Notes under the pieces: model-generated
Told to the model about the DNA's origin: nothing
The model's input: only the letters and a program-made list of their open reading frames with translations
The model's database searches: none
From: an uncultured Thiotrichaceae bacterium
Lineage (GTDB): Bacteria > Pseudomonadota > Gammaproteobacteria > SZUA-229
Direction: 5' to 3'
Length of the DNA: 33,812 nucleotides
Assembly (NCBI GenBank): GCA_964485705.1
Contig: CAZALW010000004.1
Coordinates: forward strand, 1 to 33,812
In this document: positions 13,437 to 30,064 of the stretch, in pieces
Numbering within the stretch: position 1 is the stretch's first letter
How the letters are laid out: every line of letters begins with the position of its first letter
Made by a program: the position numbers and the translations under genes

Positions 13437-14105
13437 ATGTCACAAAAAAATAAACAAATTTTGTCCGGTGCCACCCGGTTTTTTTATGTTTTTTTATGTT
13501 TTTCACTAACCGCTTTCACTACACAGTCAATCGCTATCTCATCAGCAGACACCGGTTCAACAACTGCCGAAGACCCACATGCACACCACCGAATGATGAT
13601 GCAGAACAACGACAACTATAACCGGTCATATTCTTCATACAGACTTCCTCCCAAGGTACTAAAAGACAAAAACGGTAACGATGTTAACCTGCACGATTTC
13701 CTGCATGATGACAGACCGTTTATTATGAGTTTTATCTTTACTACCTGCACAACAATCTGCCCGGTATTAACCGCTACTCTCTCGTCTGCGCAGAACGACT
13801 TAATGACATCCCAGATAAAACCCGTGCTGATATCAATCAGCATAGATCCGGAAGTAGACACGCCAGACAAATTAACAGCATATGCGAAAAAGTTTAATGC
13901 TTCTGAGGACTGGATTTTTCTAACAGGTAAACTTGATGATATTATTGAAGTACAACGTTCACTCGGCATCTATCGTGGCAGTAAGTTAAACCATGAACCT
14001 GTTACGTTAATAAAAACTGCAGGTAAAAAGTGGCTGGTTTTAAATGGTTTCACCAGCGCAAATGATCTGGTTAATGAGTACAGATCATACAGCAGTGATG
14101 ATTAA
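13437..14105 (+). CDS. SCO1/SenC family copper chaperone
   Basis: FIFTTCTTICP (CxxxC), ISIDPEVDTP, WIFLTG, conserved His (LNHEP). N-terminal signal/anchor and a His/Met-rich patch HAHHRMMM. Confidence 0.93.
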   Translation: MSQKNKQILSGATRFFYVFLCFSLTAFTTQSIAISSADTGSTTAEDPHAHHRMMMQNNDNYNRSYSSYRLPPKVLKDKNGNDVNLHDFLHDDRPFIMSFIFTTCTTICPVLTATLSSAQNDLMTSQIKPVLISISIDPEVDTPDKLTAYAKKFNASEDWIFLTGKLDDIIEVQRSLGIYRGSKLNHEPVTLIKTAGKKWLVLNGFTSANDLVNEYRSYSSDD

Positions 14106-15837
14106 AGATCAGATGCCTGCACGCTCTGCCAATATTGCCAGGAACGCAGTACGAAAAGCCACCTGTTACTCTGCAATTAGCCTTATTACAATACTGCTAT
14201 CGTCAACCAGCACATTTGCCAGTTATATAAATCAAGATGCAATACTGGCAGGTAAAAATATATACCTACATGGCAAACTTTCATCTGGTGAAAATGTTAT
14301 TGCCACCATCGTTGATGATGTTCTGTTAACCGGCAAACAGGCTGCGTGCGTTAACTGTCATCGACACAGTGGCCTGGGGTCCAATGAAGGCTCGAGCACT
14401 GCACCGGCGATAACAGGTGAGATTCTTTTTTTTGAAAAAAAAATCAAGGCGCACCGTTTCATATCAAACCCGACTAAAACACCTTCTAAACTTGATCGAC
14501 CCGCATATACAAAAAACAGCTTAAAAAACACACTATTGACAGGTGTAGATATAAACGGCAAGCCACTTGATAGATTAATGCCTCGTTATACATTTGCAGA
14601 AAATGATTATAACCATCTACATGCTTACCTCAATTCCTTATCAATTAATAATGCAGGCGTTACGGATACTACCTTACACATCGCCACCATTATAGATGAA
14701 AGAGTTAGCACAGATAAAATTGATACCCTACTCAACACATTAAAAGAATATATCTCAGACCTAAATTCTGGAACAAGACATGAGGTAAAAAGAGCCGCAC
14801 AGGCACCAATACAAAAAGAATGGTCATACCAGGGTTATAGAAAATACAAGTTGCATGTATGGCGGCTCACAGATGAGCCTGACTCATGGCAGAAACAACT
14901 GGACAGTTATTATGATAAAACACCCGTGTTTGCCGTTGTTTCCGGTATAAGTAAAGACAGCTGGAAAAATATAGATAAATTCTGTAACGCCAGGGAAGTA
15001 CCATGCATACTGCCAAATACAAAAACACCCGGTTATTCAAATAAAAACTTTTATACCCTGTATTACAATTCCGGGCCGTATAACGATGCATCGGTTATTG
15101 CACGATATTTCAACGATAAAACAATAGTTAATAATGAAGTGAATAGCATTGTACAGCTATATGATAATTCAAGTTATAGTGAAGTAGCAAGAAACACACT
15201 GCATAAAGAAATCTCATTAAACAAAAAATATAATATCACTAGTGTGTCAGTCGACACGATCAGCAATAAACATAACATTGATAAATATATAATAAACAGT
15301 AAAACAACGATCATTATCTGGTCTGATAAAATTGATACCTCCCTGATAGAGGCATTAACCAGTCATAAAAACAAAATACAATCTATTTTTATTCCTTACT
15401 ATTTAGCAACATCAAACGAAACCAGACAAAAACTTAAAAACATTGACGTTGATATTTTGACTTCATACCCATACGTAAAACCTTCTAGTGAGCCACGAGC
15501 CACAATAAGATCAAGCGTATGGGGAAGATCCAGAAAAATTGATATGACTGAAAAAGCCATATTCACAAACACGTTTACCGCAATAAAATTATTAATGAAT
15601 GCGATCAAACATGCAAGAAGTCACTTTAACCGTGCTTACATAATCGAGCTTCTGGAACATAAGCTCGACAAGGCATTATTAACCGGGATGTACCCCAAAT
15701 TAACTATCGGCCCTAATCAACGTTATGCTTCCAGAGGCGGTTATATTATGAAAGTACCTGATGATGCATCTTCACCACTGCAACCGGTAAGCCAATGGCT
15801 GCTACCTGAAAAACAGGTTAAACTTACTCAACAGTAA
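14098..15837 (+). CDS. Monoheme cytochrome c fused to a type-I periplasmic-binding-protein-like domain
   Basis: Signal peptide, heme motif CVNCH, candidate distal Met in LMPRY, then a long alpha/beta region (PVFAVVSG, EVPCILP, LTIGPNQRYASRGGYI). Start placed at ATG 14098 overlapping the SCO end; exact start uncertain. Confidence 0.8.
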   Translation: MIKDQMPARSANIARNAVRKATCYSAISLITILLSSTSTFASYINQDAILAGKNIYLHGKLSSGENVIATIVDDVLLTGKQAACVNCHRHSGLGSNEGSSTAPAITGEILFFEKKIKAHRFISNPTKTPSKLDRPAYTKNSLKNTLLTGVDINGKPLDRLMPRYTFAENDYNHLHAYLNSLSINNAGVTDTTLHIATIIDERVSTDKIDTLLNTLKEYISDLNSGTRHEVKRAAQAPIQKEWSYQGYRKYKLHVWRLTDEPDSWQKQLDSYYDKTPVFAVVSGISKDSWKNIDKFCNAREVPCILPNTKTPGYSNKNFYTLYYNSGPYNDASVIARYFNDKTIVNNEVNSIVQLYDNSSYSEVARNTLHKEISLNKKYNITSVSVDTISNKHNIDKYIINSKTTIIIWSDKIDTSLIEALTSHKNKIQSIFIPYYLATSNETRQKLKNIDVDILTSYPYVKPSSEPRATIRSSVWGRSRKIDMTEKAIFTNTFTAIKLLMNAIKHARSHFNRAYIIELLEHKLDKALLTGMYPKLTIGPNQRYASRGGYIMKVPDDASSPLQPVSQWLLPEKQVKLTQQ

Positions 15838-16888
15838 GGTGTTCAACCCTGAAATCCCCGATCACAAGTGTTAATCTGTCGCCTGTTTTAATCCTTTTAC
15901 CCGGATTGGCGATCATCAAAAAGTAGTCCTTGTTTTCCTTTATGTAACCAGGTGCCTGCCTTAAAAAACCCACTTTAGGTGATGCAGGTACGCCATATCT
16001 AACGTCTGATGCTTCTTCGATTATGAAGGGACGAAGCTTTCTGTCAAATAGAGGTTTGGCTTTTTCACTGTCAACAACACGATAACTAATATTCAGCATG
16101 TAACCAGCCGATGACTGCCGAACCCTGAAATTATCCACGCCCCATTTATTTGTTATAGATTCAGTAGTTTTATCTTTTATCGTTTTAGCACTTTGCTGAA
16201 CCTTGCCAGAGCCCTGGGTATTATCATCAGTGACAGTTATAGGTATCGCACCCGAGCCTGAGGGAAGGAAAAACTGTCTATCATTTTGGCTACTGTCAGC
16301 ACCCTGATTTTTACCAGCAATATTAGCTGAAACAACCGCATTATCATTGGTATTGTGTATCGTTGTTTGTTCTGTCATTTGCGCTGACAAATGTTCTGGT
16401 TTTTTGTCAACGGATTGCTCTGCAAGCTGAACATTATATGCAAATAAATTATTAATGATGAAGGAAACGACCTGCCCATTGGCATCACTAAGCGGGTTTT
16501 TTAGTGATTTTGTTACAGAAAAATCGGTATCACCATTAGCAATAACTTCCAGCTGAATTATCGCAACATCCAGCTCCCCTTCGACCGTATCAAAACTGGC
16601 AAATAGTATCTCATCAATGCGGCCTTCAGTATTATTGATAACACCAGATCTGTTGGCCAAACTCCAGATATGATTGATGACAACGGATTGTGCCTGTAAT
16701 ACATCTGGATTAAAGCGAATATTCAGACCACCGCCAAATATTTTTGGTGACTCAGAGAGTGTGACAAAAAGTAAAATGGTATCACCAACCTGGTAATTAG
16801 CCTGATTCGGCGTGATATTGACAACAGCGTTTGCCTGCGCACCAAAAGAAAATATAAAGACCAATAAACCCAGAGCCAAACACTTCAT
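15824..16888 (-). CDS. Secreted protein: N-terminal cohesin-like domain, low-complexity linker, C-terminal domain of unknown function
   Basis: Signal peptide ending AQA/ANA. YQVGDTILLFVTL...GGGLNIRFNPDVLQ...INNTEGRI...GELDVAIIQLEVIANGDT is the typical cohesin strand pattern. C-terminal domain WGVDNFRVRQSSAGYMLNISYRVVD...GDRLTLVIGDFRVEHLTVE. Confidence 0.75.
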   Translation of the reverse strand: MKCLALGLLVFIFSFGAQANAVVNITPNQANYQVGDTILLFVTLSESPKIFGGGLNIRFNPDVLQAQSVVINHIWSLANRSGVINNTEGRIDEILFASFDTVEGELDVAIIQLEVIANGDTDFSVTKSLKNPLSDANGQVVSFIINNLFAYNVQLAEQSVDKKPEHLSAQMTEQTTIHNTNDNAVVSANIAGKNQGADSSQNDRQFFLPSGSGAIPITVTDDNTQGSGKVQQSAKTIKDKTTESITNKWGVDNFRVRQSSAGYMLNISYRVVDSEKAKPLFDRKLRPFIIEEASDVRYGVPASPKVGFLRQAPGYIKENKDYFLMIANPGKRIKTGDRLTLVIGDFRVEHLTVE

Positions 16889-17080: not shown

Positions 17081-17385
17081 TTAATTGTTAATATCATTTA
17101 GTCTACGATACCAGATGGCCCCGGTGGACCGCCAAACATTACTCTGAAAATTGAAAAATCGCTGAAGCCTACTAGACCATTGCCATCGAAGTCAGCATCA
17201 GGATCAGTTGTACCAAATGAAACTCTGAACAGGCTAAAGTCACTAAAACCAACCAGACCATCGTTATTGAGATCCGCATCACAGATATTGCCATAACCAT
17301 CGGCATCTGTATCCACCTGTAATTTGTTACTGGCTGTAATACAATTATCACAGGCATCATACCAACCATCACCATCACTATCCGT
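17081..17385 (-). repeat. TSP3 + dockerin-like C-terminal cassette, copy 3 (subtilase)
   Basis: Encodes DSDGDGWYDACDNC...DADLNNDGLVGFSDFSLFRVSFG...DADFDGNGLVGFSDFSIFRVMFG..PGPSGI. DNA is visibly similar to the other two copies, including 17 nt beyond the stop. Confidence 0.88.
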
Positions 17386-18834
17386 TGTACCAGCTGGACA
17401 TCTCAATTTTAATAACGCCTGGTAAGCATCAACCAGACCATATCCAGTAACGTCATCAGGGCCAGGTGAACCAAGATCTAGTGCCGCGTCATATAAAGCA
17501 TTTCTAATATCATTATGGCTCGCGGTCGGTACTGCACTTTTAAGTAATGCAATAATTCCGGTAATATGCGGCGCAGCGAATGAGGTTCCTTGAACCATTG
17601 TATAAGGATCCAAAGCAGTACCCTGACCAAATGATAAATCTGAGGTGTATATTCCCACACCAGGTGCAGCCAGGTTAGGATAAAAACCATCAGAACAGCT
17701 TGATGCTCCTCGACTACTGGTATTAGCCACAGCCATCGATTCATCAACTGAAGCTACGGATACCACTTCAGCATAATCTGCCGGACTATATAAAGTTTGC
17801 TCAACGGGACCGCCATTTCCAGCAGCAAAAACAACCTCAATACCCGCCTGTTTTAGTGCATCAATATCTGCATGAAATTCAGTGTCACAAGTTGATGACG
17901 AACTTGTTGAACCCCATGAATTATTAACAATATCAGGCGCATCATCTGTAGATGGATCATCATCCGGGTCTAATAACCATTGAAAGCCACTGTGGATTGC
18001 ACTTAAGGTTGCCGTGGCATTATCTCTAAAGATCTTTACTGAAATCCAGTGAGCACCCGGTGCAACACCTATATTATTGCCTGAAGCATCACCACCAACC
18101 ATTACACCCATCACCTGGGTGCCATGACCCATGCCATCATGAGGCTGTGGATATTCTGAGTAAGGATCAAACCAGCTATTTGTACCACCTCTCCAGCTAG
18201 AAACCAGATCAGGATGCTGTGCATCAACACCGGTGTCCATTGAAGCAATTACTATGCCCTCACCAGTAATACCGTCATTCCATAAACTGGCCGACTTAAC
18301 CATATCAAGATTCCATGTTGGCATGCTATTACTGGTACTAACATTATGGTTTGCCAGTTTTATAACTGAATCAAGATTAATGCGATCTACCTGGGGATGA
18401 TTTAAAAAGATATTAATGAGATGCGGCGGCAATTTAACGGCCATTGCATTAATCAGCCATAATTCACGATCAATGTTCTTTTTGTATGACTTTAATAGCC
18501 TTTTGAATTGCTTGCTTGAAATGTCAGCATCTGACTTCATAAACTGGATGTGCATCCTGCGCATTTCTTTTCTAGCTTTTTTATAAGCTTTTATATAGGT
18601 TTTTTTATCCTTAAAATCCGAACGTTTGATCTTTTTCAACTTGTCGCTAGCATTCCTCTTATTGACATTCCTGTTGTCAGCATTTCTAGCAGGTTGGCTA
18701 TTAAAATAAATAATTACCGATATTTTATCGCCAGGCTGGCTGCTATTTATTTTTTCCTGCAGATTTTCCCCCAGATAACCAGCCAAACAGTTAACAGGGG
18801 AAACAAGCAGCAAAATAATAAACAGCAAACGCAC
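17098..18834 (-). CDS. Secreted S8 (subtilisin-like) serine peptidase with prodomain and C-terminal TSP3 + dockerin-like module
   Basis: Catalytic Asp (SMDTGVD), His (GHGTQVMG), oxyanion Asn (AAGNGG), Ser (QGTSFAAPH). I9-like propeptide. GTG start after AAGGA. Confidence 0.93.
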   Translation of the reverse strand: MRLLFIILLLVSPVNCLAGYLGENLQEKINSSQPGDKISVIIYFNSQPARNADNRNVNKRNASDKLKKIKRSDFKDKKTYIKAYKKARKEMRRMHIQFMKSDADISSKQFKRLLKSYKKNIDRELWLINAMAVKLPPHLINIFLNHPQVDRINLDSVIKLANHNVSTSNSMPTWNLDMVKSASLWNDGITGEGIVIASMDTGVDAQHPDLVSSWRGGTNSWFDPYSEYPQPHDGMGHGTQVMGVMVGGDASGNNIGVAPGAHWISVKIFRDNATATLSAIHSGFQWLLDPDDDPSTDDAPDIVNNSWGSTSSSSTCDTEFHADIDALKQAGIEVVFAAGNGGPVEQTLYSPADYAEVVSVASVDESMAVANTSSRGASSCSDGFYPNLAAPGVGIYTSDLSFGQGTALDPYTMVQGTSFAAPHITGIIALLKSAVPTASHNDIRNALYDAALDLGSPGPDDVTGYGLVDAYQALLKLRCPAGTTDSDGDGWYDACDNCITASNKLQVDTDADGYGNICDADLNNDGLVGFSDFSLFRVSFGTTDPDADFDGNGLVGFSDFSIFRVMFGGPPGPSGIVD

Positions 18835-18847
18835 TAAATATCCTTAA

Positions 18848-19150
18848 TTAATTTTTAATATCATTCAATTTGCAATACCGGATGGTCCCGGTGATTTTCC
18901 AAACATCACTCTAAACAGGCTAAAGTCACTAAAACCAACCTGGCCACTACCATCGAAGTCAGCATCAGCATCAGTTGTGCCGAATGAGACTCTGAACAGG
19001 CTAAAATCGCTAAAACCAACCTGGCCATCGTTATTGAGATCCGCGTCACAGATATTGCCAAAACCATCTCCGTTGCTATCACGCTGATCTGAATTAGCGA
19101 TTAAGGTACAGTTATCCAGATGATCCAGTACCGTATCTGAATCTGAATCG
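18848..19150 (-). repeat. TSP3 + dockerin-like C-terminal cassette, copy 2 (cupredoxin subunit C)
   Basis: Encodes DSDSDTVLDHLDNC...QRDSNGDGFGNICDADLNNDGQVGFSDFSLFRVSFG...DADFDGSGQVGFSDFSLFRVMFGKSPGPSGIAN. Confidence 0.9.
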
Positions 19151-20190
19151 GTGCCTACCTGCAGGATAATCACTAAACTACCAGGTGAAGTAGGCATGCT
19201 TCCATTAGTAGCAGTGAGAGTAGTCAGATTCAACATACGATCAAACATCGTGTAATTACCTGCACTTTGCGGTGAAAACAGGACATCTCTTGTTTGACCT
19301 GCAGCAACCAACACAGAATACTGCGTTTTAGGGTTTTGATAGACATGCCCATCTTCTGCAATTATGACAAGGTCATTACCGTGCAGCGTAGGCATATGTG
19401 ATTTCAGCCCCATGTTAATAAAACGTATTAATATATCCTGCCCTGGTGCACCCACGACAGGTGCACCTGTTGATGAATCATCACCATTCACCAGAAAATA
19501 TTGCGGATTATAATCCATGGTACTGGTCATTCCTGCAGGTGTACCATATACACCACTGGCAACCTGATTATGTAACACTGTGTCTATTTCACTATAGAAC
19601 ACTGTTGTTTCACTATCATATGTTGTTGCGATATTGGCATAAGCCTGACCCGGTGCTGCGTTTTTAGTCAGCGCGCCATATAAACCCATCTGTACCTGTA
19701 GCGCAGGATGAGTGCCGCTTTGATAGGCAAAAGTGCCCGGTTTCACGTTAGTCCAGGAATAAACCTGATCCTTTGAGCCATCTGTAGCCGTGGCAACACT
19801 GTCCGTTTCATGGGTAAACGACCTTACCCGAGTATTATCGGATGGCAGCATCACAGGAACCATGGTTGTTGAGTTCTGCCCGGGTATGACAATGGATACC
19901 GGCTCGGACAGACCAATATTTCTCACATGGATATTCAATACCGAATCAGTATCAGCCACGGTTAAAGCCGGTCCGGGCACCTGAATTGAGGCTGAACAGT
20001 CATCCGCAAAATCTGCACTGTCTGGCGCAAACCCCCACATCGGCACCACAACACCATCAGACATGGTGATGTTTTCCTGCTTTGCACACAGATAGTAATC
20101 TACTGCAAATGTTGCACCACTATAACTTGCTGATATTAAGCTCAATGCGATGGTACTTGCGAGAGCATTTTTTGTAAATTTGATTTTCAT
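18865..20190 (-). CDS. Secreted two-domain cupredoxin (MCO-like) protein lacking canonical Cu ligands, with C-terminal TSP3 + dockerin-like module (subunit C)
   Basis: MCO fold landmarks (VPMWGF, VPGPALTV, PGTFAY, MGLYGAL, YFLVNG, LIRFINMG), but ligand positions read SIVIPG, YQSG, HMPTLHG and MFDR. Confidence 0.8.
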   Translation of the reverse strand: MKIKFTKNALASTIALSLISASYSGATFAVDYYLCAKQENITMSDGVVVPMWGFAPDSADFADDCSASIQVPGPALTVADTDSVLNIHVRNIGLSEPVSIVIPGQNSTTMVPVMLPSDNTRVRSFTHETDSVATATDGSKDQVYSWTNVKPGTFAYQSGTHPALQVQMGLYGALTKNAAPGQAYANIATTYDSETTVFYSEIDTVLHNQVASGVYGTPAGMTSTMDYNPQYFLVNGDDSSTGAPVVGAPGQDILIRFINMGLKSHMPTLHGNDLVIIAEDGHVYQNPKTQYSVLVAAGQTRDVLFSPQSAGNYTMFDRMLNLTTLTATNGSMPTSPGSLVIILQVGTDSDSDTVLDHLDNCTLIANSDQRDSNGDGFGNICDADLNNDGQVGFSDFSLFRVSFGTTDADADFDGSGQVGFSDFSLFRVMFGKSPGPSGIAN

Positions 20191-20222
20191 TTTAATTACT
20201 CCGTTTAATCTTTGCTCTGCAA

Positions 20223-21563
20223 CTATTGAGGTGGATTAGGTTGACTAGGTGGCAATTCAACGTCATGTGATTCAACAATCATTTGCGTCAACATGCCGCC
20301 CGGGAAGATATCATCATTGGTTAACTCTTTTTCATTGTGTGAGTGCCACATGAAAAACAGACCACCATTCAGGTTCAAACCACCTTCACCCGGTGGCAAG
20401 TCAGCCAAAGCACCCAGGAACGGGCTACCGCTATAGAAACCACCAAAAGTGAGTTCCTGTGTTTCCGGCAATATCACCGGGATGGGTTTATCATGATCGG
20501 CACAATACTCATGCGTAACATCGTCGTAACCATCTACTGGACTGGTATCAACACAGTCATGTATTTGACCACCCGCATTAGTGCCATAGATATCAAAACC
20601 TAACTTATCACCGGTCCACGTCCAGATTGCATCATAAGTAGCACCAGGCATTACCTGTAAGGTATAGTCTGAAACAGAGAGATCAGCTGTCGCTCCTGTT
20701 GAACTTAACAAACGCCCATCACGTGCCAATAATGTAAAGTTATTACCATGTAAATGGAAAGGATGGGCTTCAAGACCACCACCAATAACTCTGACTAATA
20801 CATTTTCACCGGGGTGCATCTGCGCGATAGAGCCATAAGGCTGGTTTGGTAAAAACGGTGAATGATCAGGGAACAAGGTATCTGGCGCGAGGCGACCGTT
20901 AATAAACCATAACGTGCTGTTTGAAACCGTATTATCAATATCAGGCATTGCACCAAGCTCAATATTCTGATGAATAACCGGATCTATTTCAGATAATATG
21001 TATAGATATTCCCGGTCATACTTTGATGCCGGGTCATTGTATGCCTGAAAATCTGTAGCCGAACGCACAATAAGCGCGCCCATCAGACCCATCTCAATCT
21101 GCAAGCCTGGCTGAGTGCCACTGTAATACGTATAGGTTCCAGGCTTAGATGCAGTAAAGGTATAGGTTACTGTATTATCAGCAGCCCCCATTTCACTTTC
21201 TCTGGTGAACTGTCCTGCGCTGCCTCCCGTTGCCGTTACACTTCCCTGACCAGGAAATAATATGGATACCGGCATAGGAATACCGGTATTTATCAGATTC
21301 ACCGTTACCACATCACCCTGATTAACAATCATCGTCGGGCCTGGATACTGCATGGGAGAACCGGCAACGCCATATCCCCACATACGTACACTATTGCCAT
21401 CGGGTGTAGGGATATTTGAAAATGATGCTATCAAATCAAAAGTGGCTGCAGCTGTTGTTCGTGTGCCGGTGACACCACTAATGGCGGCATTTGCATTTGA
21501 TGCCCAGCCTAGAAACAAAACAATTAAAACAACTCGTTTAAAAAACCCTGATAATGAATACAT
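20223..21563 (-). CDS. Secreted two-domain cupredoxin (MCO-like) protein with T2/T3 His motifs in domain 2 only (subunit B)
   Basis: Domain 1 has SILFPG and YYSG in place of HxH and HCH. Domain 2 has HPFHLHG (20748-20765) and WHSH (20337-20348, no Cys). TAATG overlap with the upstream gene. Confidence 0.88.
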   Translation of the reverse strand: MYSLSGFFKRVVLIVLFLGWASNANAAISGVTGTRTTAAATFDLIASFSNIPTPDGNSVRMWGYGVAGSPMQYPGPTMIVNQGDVVTVNLINTGIPMPVSILFPGQGSVTATGGSAGQFTRESEMGAADNTVTYTFTASKPGTYTYYSGTQPGLQIEMGLMGALIVRSATDFQAYNDPASKYDREYLYILSEIDPVIHQNIELGAMPDIDNTVSNSTLWFINGRLAPDTLFPDHSPFLPNQPYGSIAQMHPGENVLVRVIGGGLEAHPFHLHGNNFTLLARDGRLLSSTGATADLSVSDYTLQVMPGATYDAIWTWTGDKLGFDIYGTNAGGQIHDCVDTSPVDGYDDVTHEYCADHDKPIPVILPETQELTFGGFYSGSPFLGALADLPPGEGGLNLNGGLFFMWHSHNEKELTNDDIFPGGMLTQMIVESHDVELPPSQPNPPQ

Positions 21564-22819
21564 TATGCACCTCCTGCTGCTGCGATTACTATTTCGGTCA
21601 TCAAGCCACCAAAATCTTCCGTATCATTACTCAGATGATTCAGGTTAGATGTATATAGAAAATATTTTCCTGGCGCCACATTTGTGGTATCAATGATGAC
21701 ATCGATAGCTTCACCACCACCCAGTGTTACTGTATTTGTCATATAAAAATGAGGTTCACCTGCAGCGGTACGTAACTGTTTTGCCCCCATACCAATAACC
21801 TGCATATCAAGCCCAAGTGTTTTTATGGAGTAAAAAAGAGTGGTGCTCACATTTGAAATGCGTAGCAGTACTTTTTGCCCCTGCTCGGCTGTGATCAGTG
21901 CGTTTTCCCCCTGCACAACCCGGTCATGCATATTTTGCACAGGCGTTGTTATTGGGCTTGTAGCCACAGTATCAGGATAGCCACGTCCGTTGATTAATGG
22001 ATAGGTATCAAGCATGTGTGCAAATGGCAGTGGTTGCGTATTCTGTGATGCATCATGAAACACCGGATCCATGGAAGTCAATTGAATTGGAAACTCAACA
22101 TCGTAATAGGTCGAACCATCGCCATCGTTATAGGCATACTGATTGCCTGTCTGATGAGTAAATCCATTTAAATCTGTGCCGTCCGGCAACTTATTCTGCG
22201 CAGCCTTAACGTAAAGATTACCCATCATGCCCATTTGCATATGTTCTGCCGCTTCAACATGACAGTGATATAAGAAAGTACCCGGTTCAGCAATATTGTA
22301 GTAATAAGTCAGGGATGAGCCCATATTGACTGAAATACTGTTATCAGGCACGCCATCAAAAATAGCTGAGGCATTGGGAAAACCATGAAAATGTACTGTG
22401 TGAGGGTCAAAAAGATCCGGTCTCATCACCATACCAACATTGGTTAAGGTGAGATAAACTTCCTGACCTTGCTCCAACACAATGGCAGGTGCTGGCAAGT
22501 TAGCATACAAGGTACCATCTGTTATCGCATCAGCCTCATCATAGCCGGTAATATCACCGAAACTAAAAACATACAGTTCTCTGCCATCTGCCATTTTTGC
22601 AAAACCGTCACCTGATGACAGGTGAATGCATTTCACATTCGGGTCATAGTCAGGGTCAGACATTTCTGGTATGCCATTGCTACCCGCAGTAACACCGTCA
22701 GACAATAAGTTATCCCCTGGACATTGAATAAAAGGAACGGCTATGGTACTGGATGAAAACACACCTATCCCTGTTGCTAACAACGCAATATATAGTTTAT
22801 GCAATTTAAAGTTTTTCAT
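21563..22819 (-). CDS. Secreted two-domain cupredoxin (MCO-like) protein with T1 and T2/T3 motifs in domain 1 only (subunit A)
   Basis: Domain 1 has PHTVHFHG (22385-22402) and YHCHVEAAEHMQMGM. Domain 2 reads FYSIKTLG and YFLYTSNLNH at the equivalent positions. Confidence 0.9.
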   Translation of the reverse strand: MKNFKLHKLYIALLATGIGVFSSSTIAVPFIQCPGDNLLSDGVTAGSNGIPEMSDPDYDPNVKCIHLSSGDGFAKMADGRELYVFSFGDITGYDEADAITDGTLYANLPAPAIVLEQGQEVYLTLTNVGMVMRPDLFDPHTVHFHGFPNASAIFDGVPDNSISVNMGSSLTYYYNIAEPGTFLYHCHVEAAEHMQMGMMGNLYVKAAQNKLPDGTDLNGFTHQTGNQYAYNDGDGSTYYDVEFPIQLTSMDPVFHDASQNTQPLPFAHMLDTYPLINGRGYPDTVATSPITTPVQNMHDRVVQGENALITAEQGQKVLLRISNVSTTLFYSIKTLGLDMQVIGMGAKQLRTAAGEPHFYMTNTVTLGGGEAIDVIIDTTNVAPGKYFLYTSNLNHLSNDTEDFGGLMTEIVIAAAGGA

Positions 22820-22835: not shown

Positions 22836-23140
22836 TTAATTTTCAATATCATTTAGTTTGCAATACCAGATGGTCCCGGTGGTTTTCCAAACATCACTCT
22901 GAACAGACTAAAGTCACTAAAGCCAACCTGGCCACTACCATCGAAGTCAGCATCAGCATCATTTGAGCCAAATGAAACTCTAAACAGGCTAAAGTCACTA
23001 AAACCAACCTGGCCATTGTTATCGAGATCTGCATCACAGATATTGCCAAAACCATCTGCATTACTATCACGCTGATCCGGATTGATGATTAATATACAGT
23101 TATCCTGAGTATCAACCACACCATCACCATCTGTATCAGG
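22836..23140 (-). repeat. TSP3 + dockerin-like C-terminal cassette, copy 1 (1.8k-aa protein)
   Basis: Encodes DTDGDGVVDTQDNC...QRDSNADGFGNICDADLDNNGQVGFSDFSLFRVSFG...DADFDGSGQVGFSDFSLFRVMFGKPPGPSGIAN. Confidence 0.9.
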
Positions 23141-26100
23141 TGTGATTGCGACAACCACTTCATCGGCACCAATATCAAAGGGTGTTGTTCTTGCTTCACC
23201 ATCAATATCATCAACCAACTCAGCAATCATGCTGTCAACGCCACCATTAATCGCCGGAGAACTTGTTTTTAGATGATAGTTACCCGATATTGATAATGGA
23301 CCAAAGTGAATATCAACAAAGTTACCACCTTCATCAAGTGCCGCCGCAGAACCAATTTGGGTAACAATAGACTGCTCACCCTGAATGACTGTCTGTGAGC
23401 GGTCACCATTAAAGTAGTCAAGAATAAACTCAGGATTTGATGAACTATTGCTGGTATGCGTTCCTGATGCATCTGTCAGAATGGAGTGCCTTGGATCCAG
23501 GGCACCCGTGGTACCGATTACCGCCAGATCGCTGAACACTGCCACGCCGCCATTAACCACATCTGGCATCAGGCCGTAGGTAGCCGGAATTGTTGTTACA
23601 TCAATTTGCCAGCTAAATGTTCTGTTCTGCCAGATAATATTATTCCGCAGTTTCGGATTAGAAAATGTCTGAGCTGAATTAGCCGCCAGTACACCACTGT
23701 GTGCAAATGACACGATACCTGCCCCAGGCTGTGCAGTAGAGGTATTAGCATCGCTATCAAACACATTACCAACCGTTGCAGTCGCATCATTATGTGCAAT
23801 AGTATTGTTTATAATGCGTACTTTTGCCGCATCCTGCATGGCAATACCAGCACCGGTCCAGCCAGCATGGTTATTAACAATCATGTTGTCAAAAATATCA
23901 ATGCCGAACCACTGTGCTGAATCAGAAGTGTTATTAGCAACATCAACACCGTTGATTTCGGACAGAGTAATACCCGCACCAAAACCTGCTCCTGCAGAGT
24001 TACCCTGAATCAGGTTGGCCTCAACAACAACATCACCTGAACCTTCTGTTTCCTGCAGCGCCAGGCCAGGTTGACCACCGATGAACAAACCGGCACCGTG
24101 TACATTTTTACCCTGGTTAAAGTTCTGGTTAAAGGCAATCGTGTTATTCGAAATCACACCATTATCACTTAAACCCAGATGAGCGATACCGGCACCATTG
24201 TCCTGTGCGAAATTACCACAGATAAAGTTATGATTTATCGTGTAGTCATCACTACCGGTATACAAAGCGATACCACCACCGGAGCCAAATGTGGTTCCGT
24301 TTAACACGATCTCATTGTCATGGATATTAATAAAATCATTGTCAGAGTCGGTAGGCACAGCGCCATTATTCAACACTGTAATCAGCGTAGGGTTACCTAC
24401 ATGAATGCCACCACCATAGATACCTTCATTACCTTTGATTTTATTGTTGGAAATCGTCAGGTAGTCAACATAGGCATTAACAAAAATACCACCACCTGTG
24501 CTGGCACCAGTGATTTCGATACCATCAATACGTGGCTGGTGAGCCTCGATGAAGTTTCCAGTCGATTGACCAAGAACAATAATGCCAGGACCTTCTTCAG
24601 CCAGGAACTGCTTTTCCTGATTAGGCAGGTAGTCGTAAGTAATGCCATCACGGGCAATAATCTGCTGACGCCAGTCTTCAAGCTTTGAAGGTGGCGTTCT
24701 GATTGCTGAAATCCTGGTCACACCGGCACCCCATCCCTGTAACTGAACAGGTTTATCCATAATCACCAGCTCACTGTATGTACCGGGTGAGAGCAAAATC
24801 AGCTCACCGGGATCAGCCGCATCGATTGCATCCTGAATAGGAGTGGCAGGCAATAATGCAGGGGATACTGAATGTATACCTGCAGCAGGTAAATGCGTGG
24901 TCACAGTAACACCACGAGGTGATTTTACGCCTGTGCTGGTGGTTAGCAATAACTGACCGGTAGCCACATTGGCAGGAACCGTTACCTGAACAACTACATC
25001 ACTCCATGAAGTGACCGTTAGTTCATCATTACCGATAAACACTGTACCCTGTGTTGCGCCAAAGCCATAATTACGGGGTATGGTTATCGGTTCGCCCGCC
25101 ATACCAAACAGGTGGTTAGGCACATCAACCATTCCTTCAGAGAAGATTGTTAATTCTCTTGCAGTAGAGTCAGTTGCAATGACAGGGCCAGTTGAACCGC
25201 CAGGACCCGTTACATATTTAATCAGCGGCTTGTTATCAGGTATTGCACAATCTACCGGGGAATTACCGACAGAGGCAAAAGCTGCAACAGGAACGACCGG
25301 TGTATCCAGATAAGTTGTCGACCCCGGCATATACTGGAAGGTATAGCAGAAAGTACTAAACTGTGGATTGTAATTCGGGTCGTTAATAAATGGACTTGAC
25401 GAAGCATCAGTCGGATCATAATTAGGATTAGCAATCGGACTGGGGTCATTCATACAGGCAAACAGCATATTTGGCGCCATACCCGTAGCGCTGGCAATAT
25501 TAACCGTTGCAGTAGATGGCACCAGCGCTTCGAATTTACCAAACTCATCTGCATAGACTTTGATAACCTCCTTACCTGCCCAGTCATAAAATGCCACCGG
25601 CACCCATGATGGTGCAAATTTTTCACCAAAGTTAGGGTTGTTAGGGTCAAATTCATTACCCAGATCGTTAAGGATACCACCGACCAGGTGCGCAGCGATG
25701 GGCGCCTGAGTGAACATAAAGAAGTCTGCAGCAGCATTTTTACCAGCCGTCAGTGCAATATGTTTTCTGTCACAAAGTGGCCTTACCGTTACCGCTGCCG
25801 GATCATAAAAGGGTGAATTAATTAAATCAGCCGCAGCAATTCCAGGCAATGGATCCCCGGTACTACCTGTCTGAAAAGAGACAAATTCAGGAATAAGGTG
25901 ATCATCACCAACACAAACTGGCGGTAATAAGGCGGGGACAAATCCATCACCGAAATCGACATTTTTATCTTCTTCTTTCAGCAGGGTATAACCGACAGGC
26001 ACTGTCGATTCAACAATATAGAAACCTGCAACCAGCCCCGGTATCTCAGCACCGGTAGGCGCACCGTTTTCATCACGTGCTATACGCGAGGTAAAGGCAT

Positions 26101-28252
26101 AACCACCATCATAAACACCTTCACGCAACTGGTTAAAGTTTCTTAAACCGTCAAAACAATCGGTTGTTTTTTCGATAGCTGTACCTGGGTGAGCAACAAA
26201 TGTCTCACCTGCACAACCGGTTGGCAAACTGTCATCCCAGCTGTCGGTATATGTCACCTGAATGGCATCACCATAATCGAAGATGCCGTTACCATTTCTA
26301 TCAACATCTTCTGATCCCGGGAAATTACCCTGTGGTGCATTATCACTATCAGCCAGGGTAATACCCGGCACACCATCAACAAGATCATCAATAGTTTCAT
26401 CATTATCTGTATCACGATAAAGATTCATCTGGATACGAGGAATACCCGGCTCCCATTCTTCAGCACCGGCAAAACGCGGGTCATCTTCAGCACGTGTGAT
26501 AGCGTATATTGCCATGCCGCTAATACCTCCATTGCCGTAATCGAATTGACCGTCACCATCATAGTCAACATCTTCAATACCAGGGAAGTTGCCATAAGGC
26601 GCATCGTCAACATCCTGTGTGCCGTAAGACACTTTACCCCACTCAATGACATTGGTCTGACCAAGGAACATCTGCGTTGCCAGTGAGATTACCGGGCCGG
26701 TAAGTGTGGTTGATAAGTTATTACCCGTGTTTGGATTAACACTGTCCTGTAGCTGCGGGTTTAAAATATCAAAACTTGGCATATCCCATCCATTATCAGG
26801 AAGAATTTCGCCACCACCATCAACCACATAAGTCACACCCGTAGCCTTATAGCGAGCAAAGTCTACTTCAGCAACCAGCCAATGGAAGAACGGGAATATC
26901 TCATCATACGGGGCTTCACCACCCAGGTCTGTGGCGAATGCCTGATAAGGCGTGCCGTTTCTGAAACGCAAACCGGTTCCCTGCTCGGGTATGGCCACCT
27001 CGCCATTATCACGAAAACCATTTTCATTTAGATCTAAAAATACCCGCGCTTCCATTCTGGCAAACCAGCCAAATACCGGCACATCACCCAAAGCCAGTAC
27101 TGTATTAGCTCCTACATCAATCGTGCGTTTTGCAATGACAATATTCAGATTTTCATCCCAGACAACAATTTCATAAGTACCTTCAGGTATACCACTAATA
27201 GCAAAGGTACTGTCTTCATTACAGGGGGCGGCAAATAAAGCCTGGCCGCCTGCAGCAACGGTTTCATTCAGACCAACCCAGCAACCGCCAAATGCATTAC
27301 CGGAGAAAAAACCGACTTCAGGTGGGCGTGCCATGTGGTTATTAGTAATACGACCGGTAACAGAACCGTTACCAGCAGGGATCATATTAAATTGTTTGAC
27401 AAAACCAATGAAAACATGAGGACCCGGGGGACCAAATTCCACAAAGAATTCTGGCTCATTCGCCAGTACCCATGCATCAACTGTTTTACTACCTTCAATA
27501 GTAGATGTTTGAATCCAGCCTTCACCAGCAGGAGGTATCACGGTAATACCGTATTTAGCAGGTGGCATATTTTTGATATACACAAAACCTTCTGCATCAG
27601 GCGTTAAAATACCGTCACCCAACTGGGTCACCACACCTGGATTATTTGGATCATATTCTGTACCCAGCGGATTACCAAAAGCATCCTGAATGATGTCACC
27701 ACCGGTTTGACCATAACGCCCTCCCGCATCAGCTATGTGAACAGTGAATTGGCCAGTAGCAAGTGGCAAGCCCAGCTCTTCTGGATCATCCGGCGCACCA
27801 TTGATGGGGTGATTATCATGAAAAATACGAACCGTGACCTGCGCAGTAGGAATCGAATGTGTATGTACCGCAACGTTGACATCACTATCACTGCCTAAAA
27901 ACGTTTTACCGCCCATAGAATGCTCAACAAATGGCAACACCGTGATAAAATATTTTTTACCCGGATCAGTATCAATAGTACAGGATGATGACCCTGTTCC
28001 CGTACATTCCCCAGTAGCCACCAGCGGTGAATAACTATTATGGAAGGAAAGCGACAATGAGTCCTGCACCGGAACGCCGGGAATCACATCAAACTTCATA
28101 TTTTCTTCAAGTGTCCACTTAAAGCCATTAACGGGAGTATTGTTTTCATTAACCACCGTCAGATTAATTGCCGCATGCACTGCTGATGTAACAGTAATTA
28201 ATAACAACAATGTATAACTAATATATACAGACATTTTTGTGTAATTTTTCAT
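22853..28252 (-). CDS. Very large secreted protein: SdrD-B/prealbumin-like Ig domains, IPT/TIG-like domain, right-handed beta-helix, choice-of-anchor-Q-like tail, TSP3 + dockerin-like module
   Basis: Signal peptide ending VHA. VFLDLNENGFRDNGE (SdrD B-like); FGATQGTVFIG..LTVTSWSD (IPT-like); IQDAIDAADPGELILLSPGTYSE followed by repeated I-x-N-N-x-I-x-x-N / GGGI (beta-helix); YHLKTSSPAINGG...DIDGEAR...DIGADE. Start placed at MKNYTK (28252) after AGGGAAG; the ORF extends to 28276. Confidence 0.85.
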   Translation of the reverse strand: MKNYTKMSVYISYTLLLLITVTSAVHAAINLTVVNENNTPVNGFKWTLEENMKFDVIPGVPVQDSLSLSFHNSYSPLVATGECTGTGSSSCTIDTDPGKKYFITVLPFVEHSMGGKTFLGSDSDVNVAVHTHSIPTAQVTVRIFHDNHPINGAPDDPEELGLPLATGQFTVHIADAGGRYGQTGGDIIQDAFGNPLGTEYDPNNPGVVTQLGDGILTPDAEGFVYIKNMPPAKYGITVIPPAGEGWIQTSTIEGSKTVDAWVLANEPEFFVEFGPPGPHVFIGFVKQFNMIPAGNGSVTGRITNNHMARPPEVGFFSGNAFGGCWVGLNETVAAGGQALFAAPCNEDSTFAISGIPEGTYEIVVWDENLNIVIAKRTIDVGANTVLALGDVPVFGWFARMEARVFLDLNENGFRDNGEVAIPEQGTGLRFRNGTPYQAFATDLGGEAPYDEIFPFFHWLVAEVDFARYKATGVTYVVDGGGEILPDNGWDMPSFDILNPQLQDSVNPNTGNNLSTTLTGPVISLATQMFLGQTNVIEWGKVSYGTQDVDDAPYGNFPGIEDVDYDGDGQFDYGNGGISGMAIYAITRAEDDPRFAGAEEWEPGIPRIQMNLYRDTDNDETIDDLVDGVPGITLADSDNAPQGNFPGSEDVDRNGNGIFDYGDAIQVTYTDSWDDSLPTGCAGETFVAHPGTAIEKTTDCFDGLRNFNQLREGVYDGGYAFTSRIARDENGAPTGAEIPGLVAGFYIVESTVPVGYTLLKEEDKNVDFGDGFVPALLPPVCVGDDHLIPEFVSFQTGSTGDPLPGIAAADLINSPFYDPAAVTVRPLCDRKHIALTAGKNAAADFFMFTQAPIAAHLVGGILNDLGNEFDPNNPNFGEKFAPSWVPVAFYDWAGKEVIKVYADEFGKFEALVPSTATVNIASATGMAPNMLFACMNDPSPIANPNYDPTDASSSPFINDPNYNPQFSTFCYTFQYMPGSTTYLDTPVVPVAAFASVGNSPVDCAIPDNKPLIKYVTGPGGSTGPVIATDSTARELTIFSEGMVDVPNHLFGMAGEPITIPRNYGFGATQGTVFIGNDELTVTSWSDVVVQVTVPANVATGQLLLTTSTGVKSPRGVTVTTHLPAAGIHSVSPALLPATPIQDAIDAADPGELILLSPGTYSELVIMDKPVQLQGWGAGVTRISAIRTPPSKLEDWRQQIIARDGITYDYLPNQEKQFLAEEGPGIIVLGQSTGNFIEAHQPRIDGIEITGASTGGGIFVNAYVDYLTISNNKIKGNEGIYGGGIHVGNPTLITVLNNGAVPTDSDNDFINIHDNEIVLNGTTFGSGGGIALYTGSDDYTINHNFICGNFAQDNGAGIAHLGLSDNGVISNNTIAFNQNFNQGKNVHGAGLFIGGQPGLALQETEGSGDVVVEANLIQGNSAGAGFGAGITLSEINGVDVANNTSDSAQWFGIDIFDNMIVNNHAGWTGAGIAMQDAAKVRIINNTIAHNDATATVGNVFDSDANTSTAQPGAGIVSFAHSGVLAANSAQTFSNPKLRNNIIWQNRTFSWQIDVTTIPATYGLMPDVVNGGVAVFSDLAVIGTTGALDPRHSILTDASGTHTSNSSSNPEFILDYFNGDRSQTVIQGEQSIVTQIGSAAALDEGGNFVDIHFGPLSISGNYHLKTSSPAINGGVDSMIAELVDDIDGEARTTPFDIGADEVVVAITPDTDGDGVVDTQDNCILIINPDQRDSNADGFGNICDADLDNNGQVGFSDFSLFRVSFGSNDADADFDGSGQVGFSDFSLFRVMFGKPPGPSGIAN

Positions 28253-28354
28253 AACTTCTTCCCTTAATCCTGCCATTTAGGTTCATTTTTCAGTAGAGCA
28301 AGACCTCATCGATCTTTTTCCACGCTTAAACATTAACCAAGTGCTGTCAAAAAG

Positions 28355-28659: not shown

Positions 28660-29043
28660 TTAATATGGCGTATACTGATTAACAATAACGAAATTTACAA
28701 AATCAAATATACTTTTAAGTGAGGCATTTTTAGAAAAAAAGCAATCAGCGCCATTTTTTTGCGCAACAGAACGATATTCAGGAACATCATGCTGACTGAG
28801 AATAACAACCACAATCTCAGGGCGTTCATATTTAATCTTTTTGGTCAGGTCGAGACCGCTTACGCCACATTTTAAATCGATATCCATGATAATCAGATCC
28901 GGATCGAACATATCAACAATATTTAACGCCTCACTTCCACCTGTCGCCTCTCTTGTTTCAAGATTATCAAATCGATGCAAAAGTGCACTTTTCAGTACAT
29001 CACGGTAATTCAAATTATCTTCAACAAGCAATGTTTTAAACAT
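28660..29043 (-). CDS. Single-domain response regulator (NarL-like REC, no output domain)
   Basis: TLLVEDN, LIIMDIDL, VSGLDL, VVILSQH, GADCFFSK. Start moved to ATG 29043 (MFKTLL). Confidence 0.88.
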   Translation of the reverse strand: MFKTLLVEDNLNYRDVLKSALLHRFDNLETREATGGSEALNIVDMFDPDLIIMDIDLKCGVSGLDLTKKIKYERPEIVVVILSQHDVPEYRSVAQKNGADCFFSKNASLKSIFDFVNFVIVNQYTPY

Positions 29044-29407
29044 TATTTTTTCATTTTTCCGCGACAATCTAATGCCTTTGCTTAATAAATAATTTCTTTT
29101 CTTTTTTGCTTCCTTACTTACATAAAAAAAACACCCACCACTTTCAGGCAATAATTTTGTACATGTATAATCAACATTGTACTTTTTATATAAATTCAGC
29201 TTATGTTATTATTGTTTAAATAATAAAATTACCCTATAAAGTAAAAACTTTATTTTTAATGTACACCTATATTCAAAAACTACATTAACGTGTATTAATA
29301 TTATTTACGGATTAGAATCAGGATTAAGGCATCTTTGATTAATTATTATCAATTCGAGCGATGCCTAATTTATATTTCTAACATAGTTAGAATAAGAGAA
29401 AATTGCT

Positions 29408-30064
29408 ATGAAATCACCCGTTCGAATACTCATCGCTGATGACCATACTATTCTAAGAGCCGGAATACGTTCTTTGCTCAACATGGTGACAGACTTTCAG
29501 GTTGTAGGGGAAGCAGACAATGGTAAAGATGCTATACGCCTGGCAGGAGAATTAAAGCCCGACTTATTACTGAGCGACCTGTCCATGCCTAAAACAAATG
29601 GTACAGAATCTATTCAGCGCATTAAAAGCCGCTACCCCAACATAAAAGTACTTGTCCTTACCGTTCACAAAACAGAAGAATATGTTCATGCTGCATTAAA
29701 AGCTGGCGCTGATGGCTATGTATTAAAAGACGACACCAGTGACGAATTAGTTAATGCCATTAACAATATAATGGCAGGCAAAACCTATTTAAGCCCAAGC
29801 ATCTGCAGTGAAGTGGTTATGGGCTATTTAGCAGACCCCAGCAAAGACAGAATATCCACCAGTCTTGATAAATTAACCACTCGTGAACGCGAAATCATGA
29901 AACTTATCGCTGAAGGAAGCCGAAATAAAGACATTGCCAAATACCTGTCGATTAGCCTGAAGACCGTTGAAAAACATCGTTCCAACATGATGAAAAAACT
30001 GGATCTACATAGTGCTAGCAGTATTACCAGTTACGCTATAAAGAATGGTCTTGCTGCACAATAA
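29408..30064 (+). CDS. NarL/FixJ-family DNA-binding response regulator (REC + LuxR HTH)
   Basis: ILIADDH, SDLSMPKTNG, GYVLKD, LTTREREIMKLIAEG.RNKDIA..L.IS.KTVEKHRSNMMKKL. Confidence 0.96.
   Translation: MKSPVRILIADDHTILRAGIRSLLNMVTDFQVVGEADNGKDAIRLAGELKPDLLLSDLSMPKTNGTESIQRIKSRYPNIKVLVLTVHKTEEYVHAALKAGADGYVLKDDTSDELVNAINNIMAGKTYLSPSICSEVVMGYLADPSKDRISTSLDKLTTREREIMKLIAEGSRNKDIAKYLSISLKTVEKHRSNMMKKLDLHSASSITSYAIKNGLAAQ

Follow-up and report, generated by a model that had tools for sequence, protein, structure and literature searches.

Type-C two-domain multicopper oxidases (MCO) carry the type 1 (T1) copper site, an HxxHxH motif and an HCH motif in domain 1, and a further HxxHxH together with an HxH motif in domain 2. 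To our knowledge, the trinuclear copper cluster of MCO always lies between two cupredoxin domains, the ligands in all described cases belong to one chain or to identical chains, and no two-domain oxidase of this fold has been described in a form other than a three-unit ring. Six-domain oxidases, such as ceruloplasmin, hephaestin and bacterial MnxG, are single polypeptides with a single trinuclear cluster. In ceruloplasmin, this cluster lies between the first and last domains, the T1 site linked to it is in the last domain, and further T1 sites are kept. MnxG is a complete six-domain oxidase, while the MnxE and MnxF proteins that accompany it are small and are not MCO paralogs. Here we describe three tandem, paralogous genes (A, B and C) found in a 33,812 nt stretch of contig CAZALW010000004.1 (hereafter the window) from an uncultured Thiotrichaceae bacterium. 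Their products are probably the subunits of one secreted, heteromeric MCO built on the two-domain (type-C-like) plan, with one trinuclear cluster formed from the ligands of two different chains, as was proposed earlier from a reading of the sequence alone (the original prediction).

Two-domain oxidases are trimeric (PMC13151041), and the type-C reference structures, 3g5w (Nitrosomonas europaea blue copper oxidase), 2zwn (the metagenome laccase mgLAC) and 3gdc, share with the proposed enzyme the two cupredoxin domains of each chain and the siting of the cluster where domain 1 of a chain meets domain 2 of its neighbor. In the reference enzymes all ligands are present in one chain and the homotrimer holds three clusters, whereas in the window the ligand sets are found in different genes, a third paralog has neither set, and no more than one cluster can form per three chains. 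The two-domain oxidase Nmar_1354 of Nitrosopumilus maritimus has been called an 'ααα′ heterotrimer', but its chains come from one gene, are proteolysed and differ only by the loss of an extra cupredoxin domain, and each has all the ligands (PMC11761707). Bacillus Mnx (MnxG, MnxE and MnxF) is also a multisubunit MCO, with accessory subunits encoded beside the catalytic gene (PMC5622069), but no ligand set is known to be split between its chains.

A gene cluster resembling that of the window has been reported in Sideroxydans lithotrophicus ES-1, where three tandem MCO genes occur with SCO1 and a MofC-like cytochrome; their proteins were predicted to be extracellular, and the account given of these genes offers no clue to their function (He et al. 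2017, PMC5566968). Higher levels of the proteins of this cluster (Slit_1812-1818) were found on magnetite than with Fe(II)-citrate, and Paraburkholderia, Ralstonia, Anaeromyxobacter and Steroidobacteraceae were named as having similar clusters (Keffer et al. 2025, PMC12016527). Two of the three Slit cupredoxin proteins have canonical MCO motifs, while the third lacks them and is larger (PMC12016527), with adhesin-like and polysaccharide-lyase-like parts, and small hypothetical proteins are encoded alongside (PMC5566968, PMC12016527). SCO1/SenC and a MofC-like cytochrome also link the window to the Leptothrix mofABC and Geobacter ompB clusters (PMC5566968), and Cupriavidus metallidurans has in addition a PPIase, which is what MofB is; MofA and OmpB differ in being single large oxidases, and the three tandem MCO are not homologous to them according to He et al. 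(PMC5566968).

The original prediction knew of no characterised example. This type of gene cluster had already been seen in S. lithotrophicus, but a heteromeric or split-ligand two-domain oxidase was not found in open-access text (the supplementary material of both Sideroxydans studies, with Fig. S4 and Table S1 of Keffer et al., may be relevant here), and the words trimer, heterotrimer and AlphaFold are absent from the main text of Keffer et al. (PMC12016527). What is new is a probable heteromeric, ligand-complementing two-domain MCO; the gene cluster itself was known, having been noted but not understood.

Family Membership and Copper Ligands of A, B and C

Five genes, BIG, A, B, C and an S8 subtilase, are arranged head-to-tail on the minus strand (Table 1), with gaps of 30–33 nt or an overlap between them, BIG being the first gene of the operon. 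The start codon of B overlaps the stop codon of A (TAATG) and an AGGAGG sequence is found 8 nt upstream of the B ATG, which points to translational coupling of the two genes. As judged by eye, A, B and C each have a Sec-type signal peptide of their own, with basic residues at the N-terminus, a hydrophobic core and a small-x-small site; a twin arginine is absent from all three.

All three proteins belong to the MCO superfamily by the Pfam gathering cut-offs (20.4–21 bits for the multicopper oxidase families), scoring 64.6 (Cu-oxidase_2, cut-off 20.4), 51.7 and 36.2 bits for A, 40.3 (Cu-oxidase_3, cut-off 21), 33.3 and 21.9 bits for B, and 39.6 bits (Cu-oxidase, cut-off 21) for C. NCBIfam has no specific family for any of them, every match being far under its cut-off. 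B and C are the closest pair (32% identity over 306 columns, E 3e-35), followed by A and B (28%, 188 columns, E 3e-13) and A and C (22%, 196 columns, E 1e-5). The solved chains closest to A are 3gdc (E 4.3e-14), 3g5w (2.5e-13) and 2zwn (2.5e-11), and both A and B align with 3g5w and 2zwn across both domains. Two cupredoxin domains per chain are therefore evident from sequence matches for A and B, and from a fold match for C, where a confident model of the core (residues 29–336; pLDDT 91.7, pTM 0.89) retains both domains and is most similar to 2zwn (E 1.5e-17, TM 0.69, 296 columns), 3gdc and 3g5w.

The copper ligands are unevenly divided between the chains. A contains H140-T-V-H143-F-H145 and H185-C186-H187-x5-H193-x4-M198, both of which align with the domain 1 motifs of 3g5w, and it has no further HxH. 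In B, the motifs are H267-P-F-H270-L-H272 and W-H407-S-H409, without an HCH; there is no histidine before residue 198, and domain 1 is His-free. Domain 2 of B matches solved structures only below threshold (2zwn E 0.28, 3g5w E 0.35), and these alignments were used for residue correspondence only. C has neither HxH nor HCH; its SHMPTLH segment holds two of the three His positions of the B motif, but these two histidines are not conserved among C orthologs.

From the motif rules of the family (HXHG, HXH, HXXHXH and HCHXXXHXXXXM; PMC7036934), domain 1 of A would supply the whole T1 site plus four cluster histidines and domain 2 of B the other four. A complete domain 1 T1 site (His, Cys, His, Met) is found in A only, not in B or C, and none of the three chains has all eight trinuclear histidines. 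Since no chain has a full ligand set, a cluster is possible only where domain 1 of A meets domain 2 of B. On its ligand pattern, a cluster in a homo-oligomer of A, B or C is excluded, and the ligand count allows exactly one cluster per A+B+C. Motif counts by themselves are weak evidence, as two or more HxH arose by chance in 138 of 2000 shuffles of A and 60 of 2000 shuffles of B; the weight comes from the alignment to solved two-domain oxidases and from conservation.

The observations behind the original prediction are confirmed. It had placed three tandem two-cupredoxin-domain paralogs here, in agreement with the open reading frames (ORF), Pfam scores and pairwise alignments, and had given each a Sec-type signal peptide, the features of which are visible by eye. 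The translations likewise agree with its assignment of H-x-x-HFH and HCH-x5-H-x4-M to domain 1 of A with no motif in domain 2, of HPFHLH and WHSH to domain 2 of B with none in domain 1, and of no intact HxH or HCH to C. A reading of these genes as decaying pseudogenes was ruled out, as none of the three is disrupted and all are conserved in different phyla.

Conservation, Gene Order and Phylogeny

The motifs of A are retained in 13 of 13 orthologs, and H140, H143, H145 and the motif at residues 185–198 are invariant over 71 alignment rows. HPFHLH of B is retained in 12 of 12 orthologs, and HSH in all 11 that reach that position. Among the matches listed, one HxxHxH followed by HCH-x5-H-x4-M is present in 119 of 120 relatives of A and again in 119 of 120 longer, A-containing proteins, while 119 of 120 relatives of B have HPxHxH followed by HxH, and none of the 120 has HCH. 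The orthologs of C conserve no copper ligand, and positions that have degenerated in them remain degenerate. A wider sample of C-type proteins consisted of the best 150 representatives at 50% identity found with C, of which 139 hold the C core; 131 of the 137 aligned over at least 250 residues are without HxH, six have one, and none has HCH. On this pattern of conservation, the split of the ligands is to be regarded as ancient and strict. Segments of C that match the former copper loops (VSIVIPGQ and QVQMGLYGAL) are conserved among its orthologs, whose lengths range from 404 to 927 amino acids (aa) with lineage-specific tails.

Gene order is strictly maintained. In twelve genome loci, from Gammaproteobacteria, Holophagae, Nitrospirae, Deltaproteobacteria, Lentisphaerae, Desulfobacteraceae and Syntrophobacteraceae bins, A is followed by B in 11 of 11 and B by C in 10 of 10 loci with room for the next gene, and BIG lies ahead of A in 11 of 12. 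Of 401 genomes sampled evenly from the class of the window, 11 contain A (the window's own genome counted), and B is present in the same 11, each time directly downstream. In all 12 of a further set of stretches, taken from the class-sample matches with two more added, B has a C-type gene after it (two of the stretches end within C, and one, L023, is the same contig as L001 of the first set). A set of 54 metagenome loci was collected using an A gene fused to a PAP2-like domain as query, and A is present in 53; in the loci with room, B adjoins A in 39 of 40, a C-type gene adjoins B in 30 of 31, and BIG lies upstream in 27 of 31. The expectation that homologs would co-occur in A-B-C order with the same ligand pattern is thus borne out by the synteny and conservation counts, with two exceptions in order (see later). 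One of these metagenome contigs (L027, 1–5477) carries B and C followed directly by a PAP2-fused A and B of a second cluster, so that two clusters lie in tandem.

The putative A/B/C enzyme, as recognized by these sequence features, is widespread and occurs in many phyla, for the most part in metagenome bins of sediment, groundwater and marine origin. Within the genus of the window, the cluster occurs in two of 33 genomes besides the window's own, and close relatives are found in distant phyla; such a patchy distribution fits horizontal transfer of the whole unit. In a tree of 33 orthologs (fragments L009_A, L006_C and L002_B being excluded), A, B and C each form one split (support 100/100, 99/97 and 99/97, respectively), and B is sister to C. 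The inner pairs are repeated in all three of A, B and C, from which it follows that the triplication preceded the spread, and that the three genes travel together across phyla. C is the fastest evolving of the three, with end branches of 0.5–1.1 against 0.04–0.7 for A.

The window cluster is filed with the Slit_1812-1818 type, an orthology inferred from its architecture and from Burkholderiales relatives. By description, each has a tandem row of three cupredoxin genes, of which two have MCO motifs and the third does not, together with SCO1 and a MofC-like gene nearby. A search of a plasmid collection with A (tblastn) gave 12 records (Paraburkholderia, six; Ralstonia, four; Cupriavidus, two) at 38–41% identity and E 1e-92 to 1e-100. 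The locus in C. metallidurans CH34 (L079, 15157–23253 of the stretch; chromid NC_007974.2) shows the architecture described for the Slit cluster, with the order A, B, C~BIG, where C and BIG form a single ORF of 2698 aa. In this Slit-type or Burkholderiales lineage, BIG is thus fused behind C, whereas the window has BIG upstream of A and as a gene of its own. In the Burkholderiales row (L079, also L022), C~BIG is followed by genes for a small protein, two LolA-like proteins, a cytochrome c, SCO1 and a PPIase, and the L079 stretch carries no annotation in the PLSDB table.

Proposed Assembly of the Three Chains and Competing Explanations

A complex model was produced for the pair A (residues 28–418) and B (residues 27–440), each with about 70 relatives. 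It reached an ipSAE of 0.89 (0.88, 0.89 and 0.89 in the separate runs), against 0.01 for the best of three controls; the pass mark is reached by 58 of 80 solved complexes and two of 110 mismatched pairs. The runs share at least 95% of contacts, and the pLDDT of the partner is at least 91. On the side of A, the interface comprises residues 139, 145–153, 155–177 and 189–195, along with the domain 2 loops 263–269, 325–329, 344–353 and 365–370, while B contributes residues 266–275, 288–303, 316–325, 361–381 and 401–421. All contacts of B are at residue 179 or beyond, so that domain 2 of B, and not domain 1, meets the ligand loops of A, and the HxxHxH loop of A faces the HPxHxH and HxH loops of B. 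The orientation predicted by the model is the one that builds the cluster. Complex prediction, which the original prediction had advised, sets the motif loop of A against domain 2 of B for this pair. The central claim of the original prediction, that A(D1) and B(D2) together supply the eight cluster histidines with a single T1 site in A, is supported by motifs, conservation, co-occurrence and the A+B model.

If these chains do associate, then three incomplete proteins, each exported by its own Sec signal, would come together, with domain 1 of A packing on domain 2 of B as neighboring chains do in homotrimeric two-domain oxidases, and one eight-His cluster would form. The T1 copper would be held by H140, C186, H193 and M198 of A, and the cluster by H143, H145, H185 and H187 of A together with H270, H272, H407 and H409 of B, the two sites being wired through H185-C186-H187. 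By analogy with the family, electrons from an outside reductant would enter at T1 and O2 would be reduced to water at the cluster. The best substrate lead is a reduced metal, including mineral-bound Fe(II), for which the magnetite response in Sideroxydans is the sole experimental lead. The MofC-like cytochrome (which may donate or accept electrons) and the dehydrogenase fusions described below suggest that T1 may also receive electrons from a protein partner.

C most likely provides the third unit of a six-domain ring. The conserved cores of A, B and C total about 1043–1065 residues, and 1033 in the shortest ortholog set (L007). The complete 1:1:1 ring, with C included, is given chances of around even, and the fullest version, in which an obligate 1:1:1 six-domain ring with one T1 site and one cluster is carried on a giant surface protein and is a possible oxidase for reduced metals, remains tentative at slightly under even. 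The original prediction saw in this a three-gene counterpart of the six-domain architecture. Six cupredoxin domains are common to both, and the ligand count in the window would allow the one cluster, but the domains are distributed over three ORFs with their own signal peptides rather than in one polypeptide, and the topology does not correspond: the only T1 site is type-C-like, in the first domain of its unit, with the other four domains ligand-free, whereas the linked T1 of ceruloplasmin is in the last domain.

Gene fusions bear on the composition of the assembly. In L005 and L010, BIG and A are joined in a single ORF, of 2775 and 2440 aa, respectively, and they are also fused in database proteins of around 2000 aa with Beta_helix, SdrD_B and MCO domains (e.g., P0134). 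BIG is thus covalently tied to A or to C depending on the lineage, which is most simply explained if A, C and BIG belong to a common assembly. Elsewhere, A-type units are fused to vanadium-chloroperoxidase/PAP2-like, alkaline-phosphatase, glucose/sorbosone-dehydrogenase plus laminin-G and beta-helix domains (P0126, P0163, P0127 and P0134), and in L025–L028 the PAP2-fused A lies between BIG and the genes for B, C, a small protein and S8. No fusion of A to B was seen in the 120 proteins listed out of 209 longer relatives of A (motif count on all 120, BLAST on 12), longer forms of B and C not being searched.

Several observations weigh against the heteromeric ring. The place of C in it rests on synteny, co-phylogeny and fusions, as the model took A and B only. 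The high score of the A+B pair may stem from solved homotrimers of this fold that the predictor had already learned, the controls, being unrelated proteins, do not tell A-B apart from A-A or B-B, and only H145 of A and H270, H272 and H409 of B, of the eight cluster histidines, are named among the contacts. An extra HxH is present downstream of the T1 loop in 13 of 120 A relatives. At L031, A has no B within 7 kb downstream, and at L042 an unrelated convergent gene, not C, follows B. The database protein P0465 (696 aa) consists of two ligand-free, C-like two-domain units in tandem, with no HxH and a dockerin-like end segment, and such a C-C fusion makes other ring compositions possible. In one magnetite column of the S. 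lithotrophicus proteome, the three proteins have unequal percentiles of 79.3, 74.8 and 29.5 (PMC12016527), although these abundances neither support nor exclude a 1:1:1 ratio.

Alternatively, the catalyst may be an A/B heterodimer or another A/B oligomer, with C outside the ring as an accessory that, for example, anchors the enzyme to the surface, links it to BIG as an adhesin-like adaptor or, reusing the cupredoxin fold, aids assembly. The A+B model gave a confident interface without C, and the faster evolution of C, its lineage-specific tails and variable length (404–927 aa), its fusion to BIG in Burkholderiales and the tandem fusion in P0465 would all suit such a role. Yet C has kept both domains and its best matches are trimeric two-domain oxidases, its old copper-loop segments are still conserved, and where a locus has room for it, C is the gene after B in 10 of 10, 12 of 12 and 30 of 31 cases; moreover, two-domain oxidases of this fold are not known in any form but three-unit rings. 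An accessory role for C is therefore considered unlikely, while remaining the strongest of the alternatives. Separate functions for the three proteins, with A a blue-copper carrier retaining a vestigial half-cluster, B a site for another metal, C structural and no trinuclear cluster at all, would explain why no chain has a full ligand set, and the many fusion partners of A could suit a generic electron-carrier module. This is improbable given that eight canonical cluster histidines are under strong selection in two chains across phyla, that the 11 genomes with A among the 401 sampled are also those with B, that the translation of the two genes is apparently coupled, that B and C come after A even where A is fused to PAP2 (L025–L028), and that the motif loops are face to face in the A+B model.

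Copper nitrite reductases have the same two-domain trimer plan and are among the better matches of A (E ~3e-8) and B (best 1.3e-8), which raised the possibility of a T1 site with a single type-2 copper at the subunit interface. The type-2 site of these enzymes has three histidines in different motifs, with neither HCH nor paired HxH, while A has an HCH motif and an HxH pair and B two HxH pairs, the eight histidines forming the oxidase pattern. The best matches of A are the oxidases 3gdc, 3g5w and 2zwn, and NCBIfam Cu_nitrite_red scores only 32.8 and 36.4 bits against a cut-off of 296.3. The ligand pattern leads us to reject the nitrite reductase reading, the least probable of those considered.

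Were the heteromeric enzyme confirmed, it would provide a case of paralogs locked into an obligate heteromer by complementary loss after gene duplication. It would represent the long-assumed step between two-domain homotrimers with three clusters and six-domain enzymes with one, as a living intermediate between the homotrimeric two-domain and the single-chain six-domain oxidases. It would also be a warning for annotation, since thousands of 'multicopper oxidase' genes would be inactive alone, and would offer a possible cell-surface oxidase for solid or dissolved reduced metals, e.g., Fe(II) minerals such as magnetite. A need for joint expression of the three genes would make the biochemistry directly testable.

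Neighboring Genes and Hints of a Surface Assembly

The original prediction dealt with A, B and C; the wider unit also includes BIG, the S8 peptidase, a small conserved protein, SCO1 and the MofC-like cytochrome (Table 1). From their neighborhood and fusions, BIG may carry the holoenzyme with C filling the third place of the ring, SCO1 probably loads copper, and the S8 peptidase probably processes secreted parts. The S8 peptidase recurs near the cluster in other loci, as does SCO1 in other genomes, where a MofC-like gene again lies beside it. The MofC-like protein of the window has weak Pfam matches to Cytochrom_C and Peripla_BP_6. Its annotated ORF overlaps SCO1 by 62 nt, and an ATG at 14113 directly precedes the signal peptide and is probably the true start.

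Table 1. Position and predicted character of the genes and motifs discussed (window coordinates).
Feature	Position	Strand	Description
BIG	22853-28276	minus	1807 aa, secreted; beta-sandwich repeats, right-handed beta-helix (Pfam); tail shared with C
A	21563-22819	minus	418 aa; two-domain MCO subunit; sole T1 site and four cluster His, all in domain 1
A residues 140-145, HTVHFH	22385-22402	minus	H140, predicted T1 ligand; H143 and H145, predicted cluster ligands
A residues 185-198, HCHVEAAEHMQMGM	22226-22267	minus	predicted T1 ligands C186, H193, M198; predicted cluster ligands H185, H187
B	20223-21563	minus	446 aa; two-domain MCO subunit; domain 2 with four cluster His, without T1 Cys
B residues 267-272, HPFHLH	20748-20765	minus	aligns to HamHsH of 2zwn domain 2, sub-threshold
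B residues 407-409, HSH (in WHSH)	20337-20345	minus	aligns to fHdH of 2zwn, sub-threshold
C	18865-20190	minus	441 aa; two-domain MCO fold without copper ligands; TSP3/dockerin-like tail
C tail, residues 345-441	18868-19158	minus	nearly identical to tails of the 1807-aa protein and the S8 peptidase
S8 subtilase	17098-18834	minus	I9 propeptide, tail shared with C; Pfam Peptidase_S8 2.4e-49; starts 30 nt past C
X	15824-16888	minus	354 aa; cohesin-like N-terminal lead and conserved C-terminal domain of ~110 residues
SCO1/SenC-type copper chaperone	13437-14105	plus	Pfam 1.1e-20
MofC-like protein	14044-15837	plus	597 aa; one CxxCH haem motif (CVNCH) and a periplasmic-binding-protein-like part
LuxR-type response regulator	29408-30064	plus	Pfam

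BIG, C and the S8 peptidase have a common tail of some 95 residues, in which a D-x-N/D-x-D-G...F-S-D-F-S-L-F-R segment is duplicated. The dockerin tag that had been proposed for C is favored by this near-identical tail on three proteins but not by the family scores, which are below threshold for both TSP_3 (21.1 bits, cut-off 25) and dockerin_GC (19.2 bits, cut-off 29). A possible counterpart is the protein X, for which Atlas gave cohesin as a lead only (0.83). X has no Pfam match even at E 10, and a Foldseek search against the PDB returned nothing at E ≤ 0.001, the best hit (0.02) being a generic beta-sandwich; the pLDDT of its model exceeds 90 for residues 240–354 only, the N-terminal part being of low confidence. 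The C-terminal domain of X is present in seven of the first 12 loci and nine of the 12 further loci, and is a separate small secreted protein in other genomes. In a genome of the same genus (L024), X is split into two genes (9064–10161 and 10179–10670), where a 365-aa cohesin-like protein, which has a signal peptide, a Thr/Ser-rich linker and a membrane helix at its C-terminus, adjoins a 163-aa secreted protein. The cohesin-like part of X and the dockerin-like tails of BIG, C and S8 are hints of a cohesin-dockerin-type surface assembly in a Gram-negative bacterium.

The cluster is flanked by the LuxR-type regulator, a lone receiver-domain protein (28660–29151, minus strand) and a HisKA_3 kinase (6185–7894, plus strand). 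Relatives of the LuxR regulator (37–77% identity) adjoin the cluster in L001, L002, L004 and L008, and are also found in L014, L015 and L021. That relatives of the flanking regulators flank the cluster in several genomes suggests two-component control. Promoter-like sites (38 in the window against a shuffle mean of 36.8) and terminator-like sites (11 against 10.7) were uninformative, and no RNA sequencing runs containing the window are listed. Two DNA runs from a single seawater-metagenome study do contain it and may be where it came from.

A 1654-aa protein with Big_9, cadherin-like and TSP3 repeats is encoded at 8067–13031 on the minus strand. Similar cadherin-like repeats are found in the C-terminal extensions of C orthologs or in the N-terminal part of A-containing ORFs (L001, L003, L004, L005, L009 and L010).

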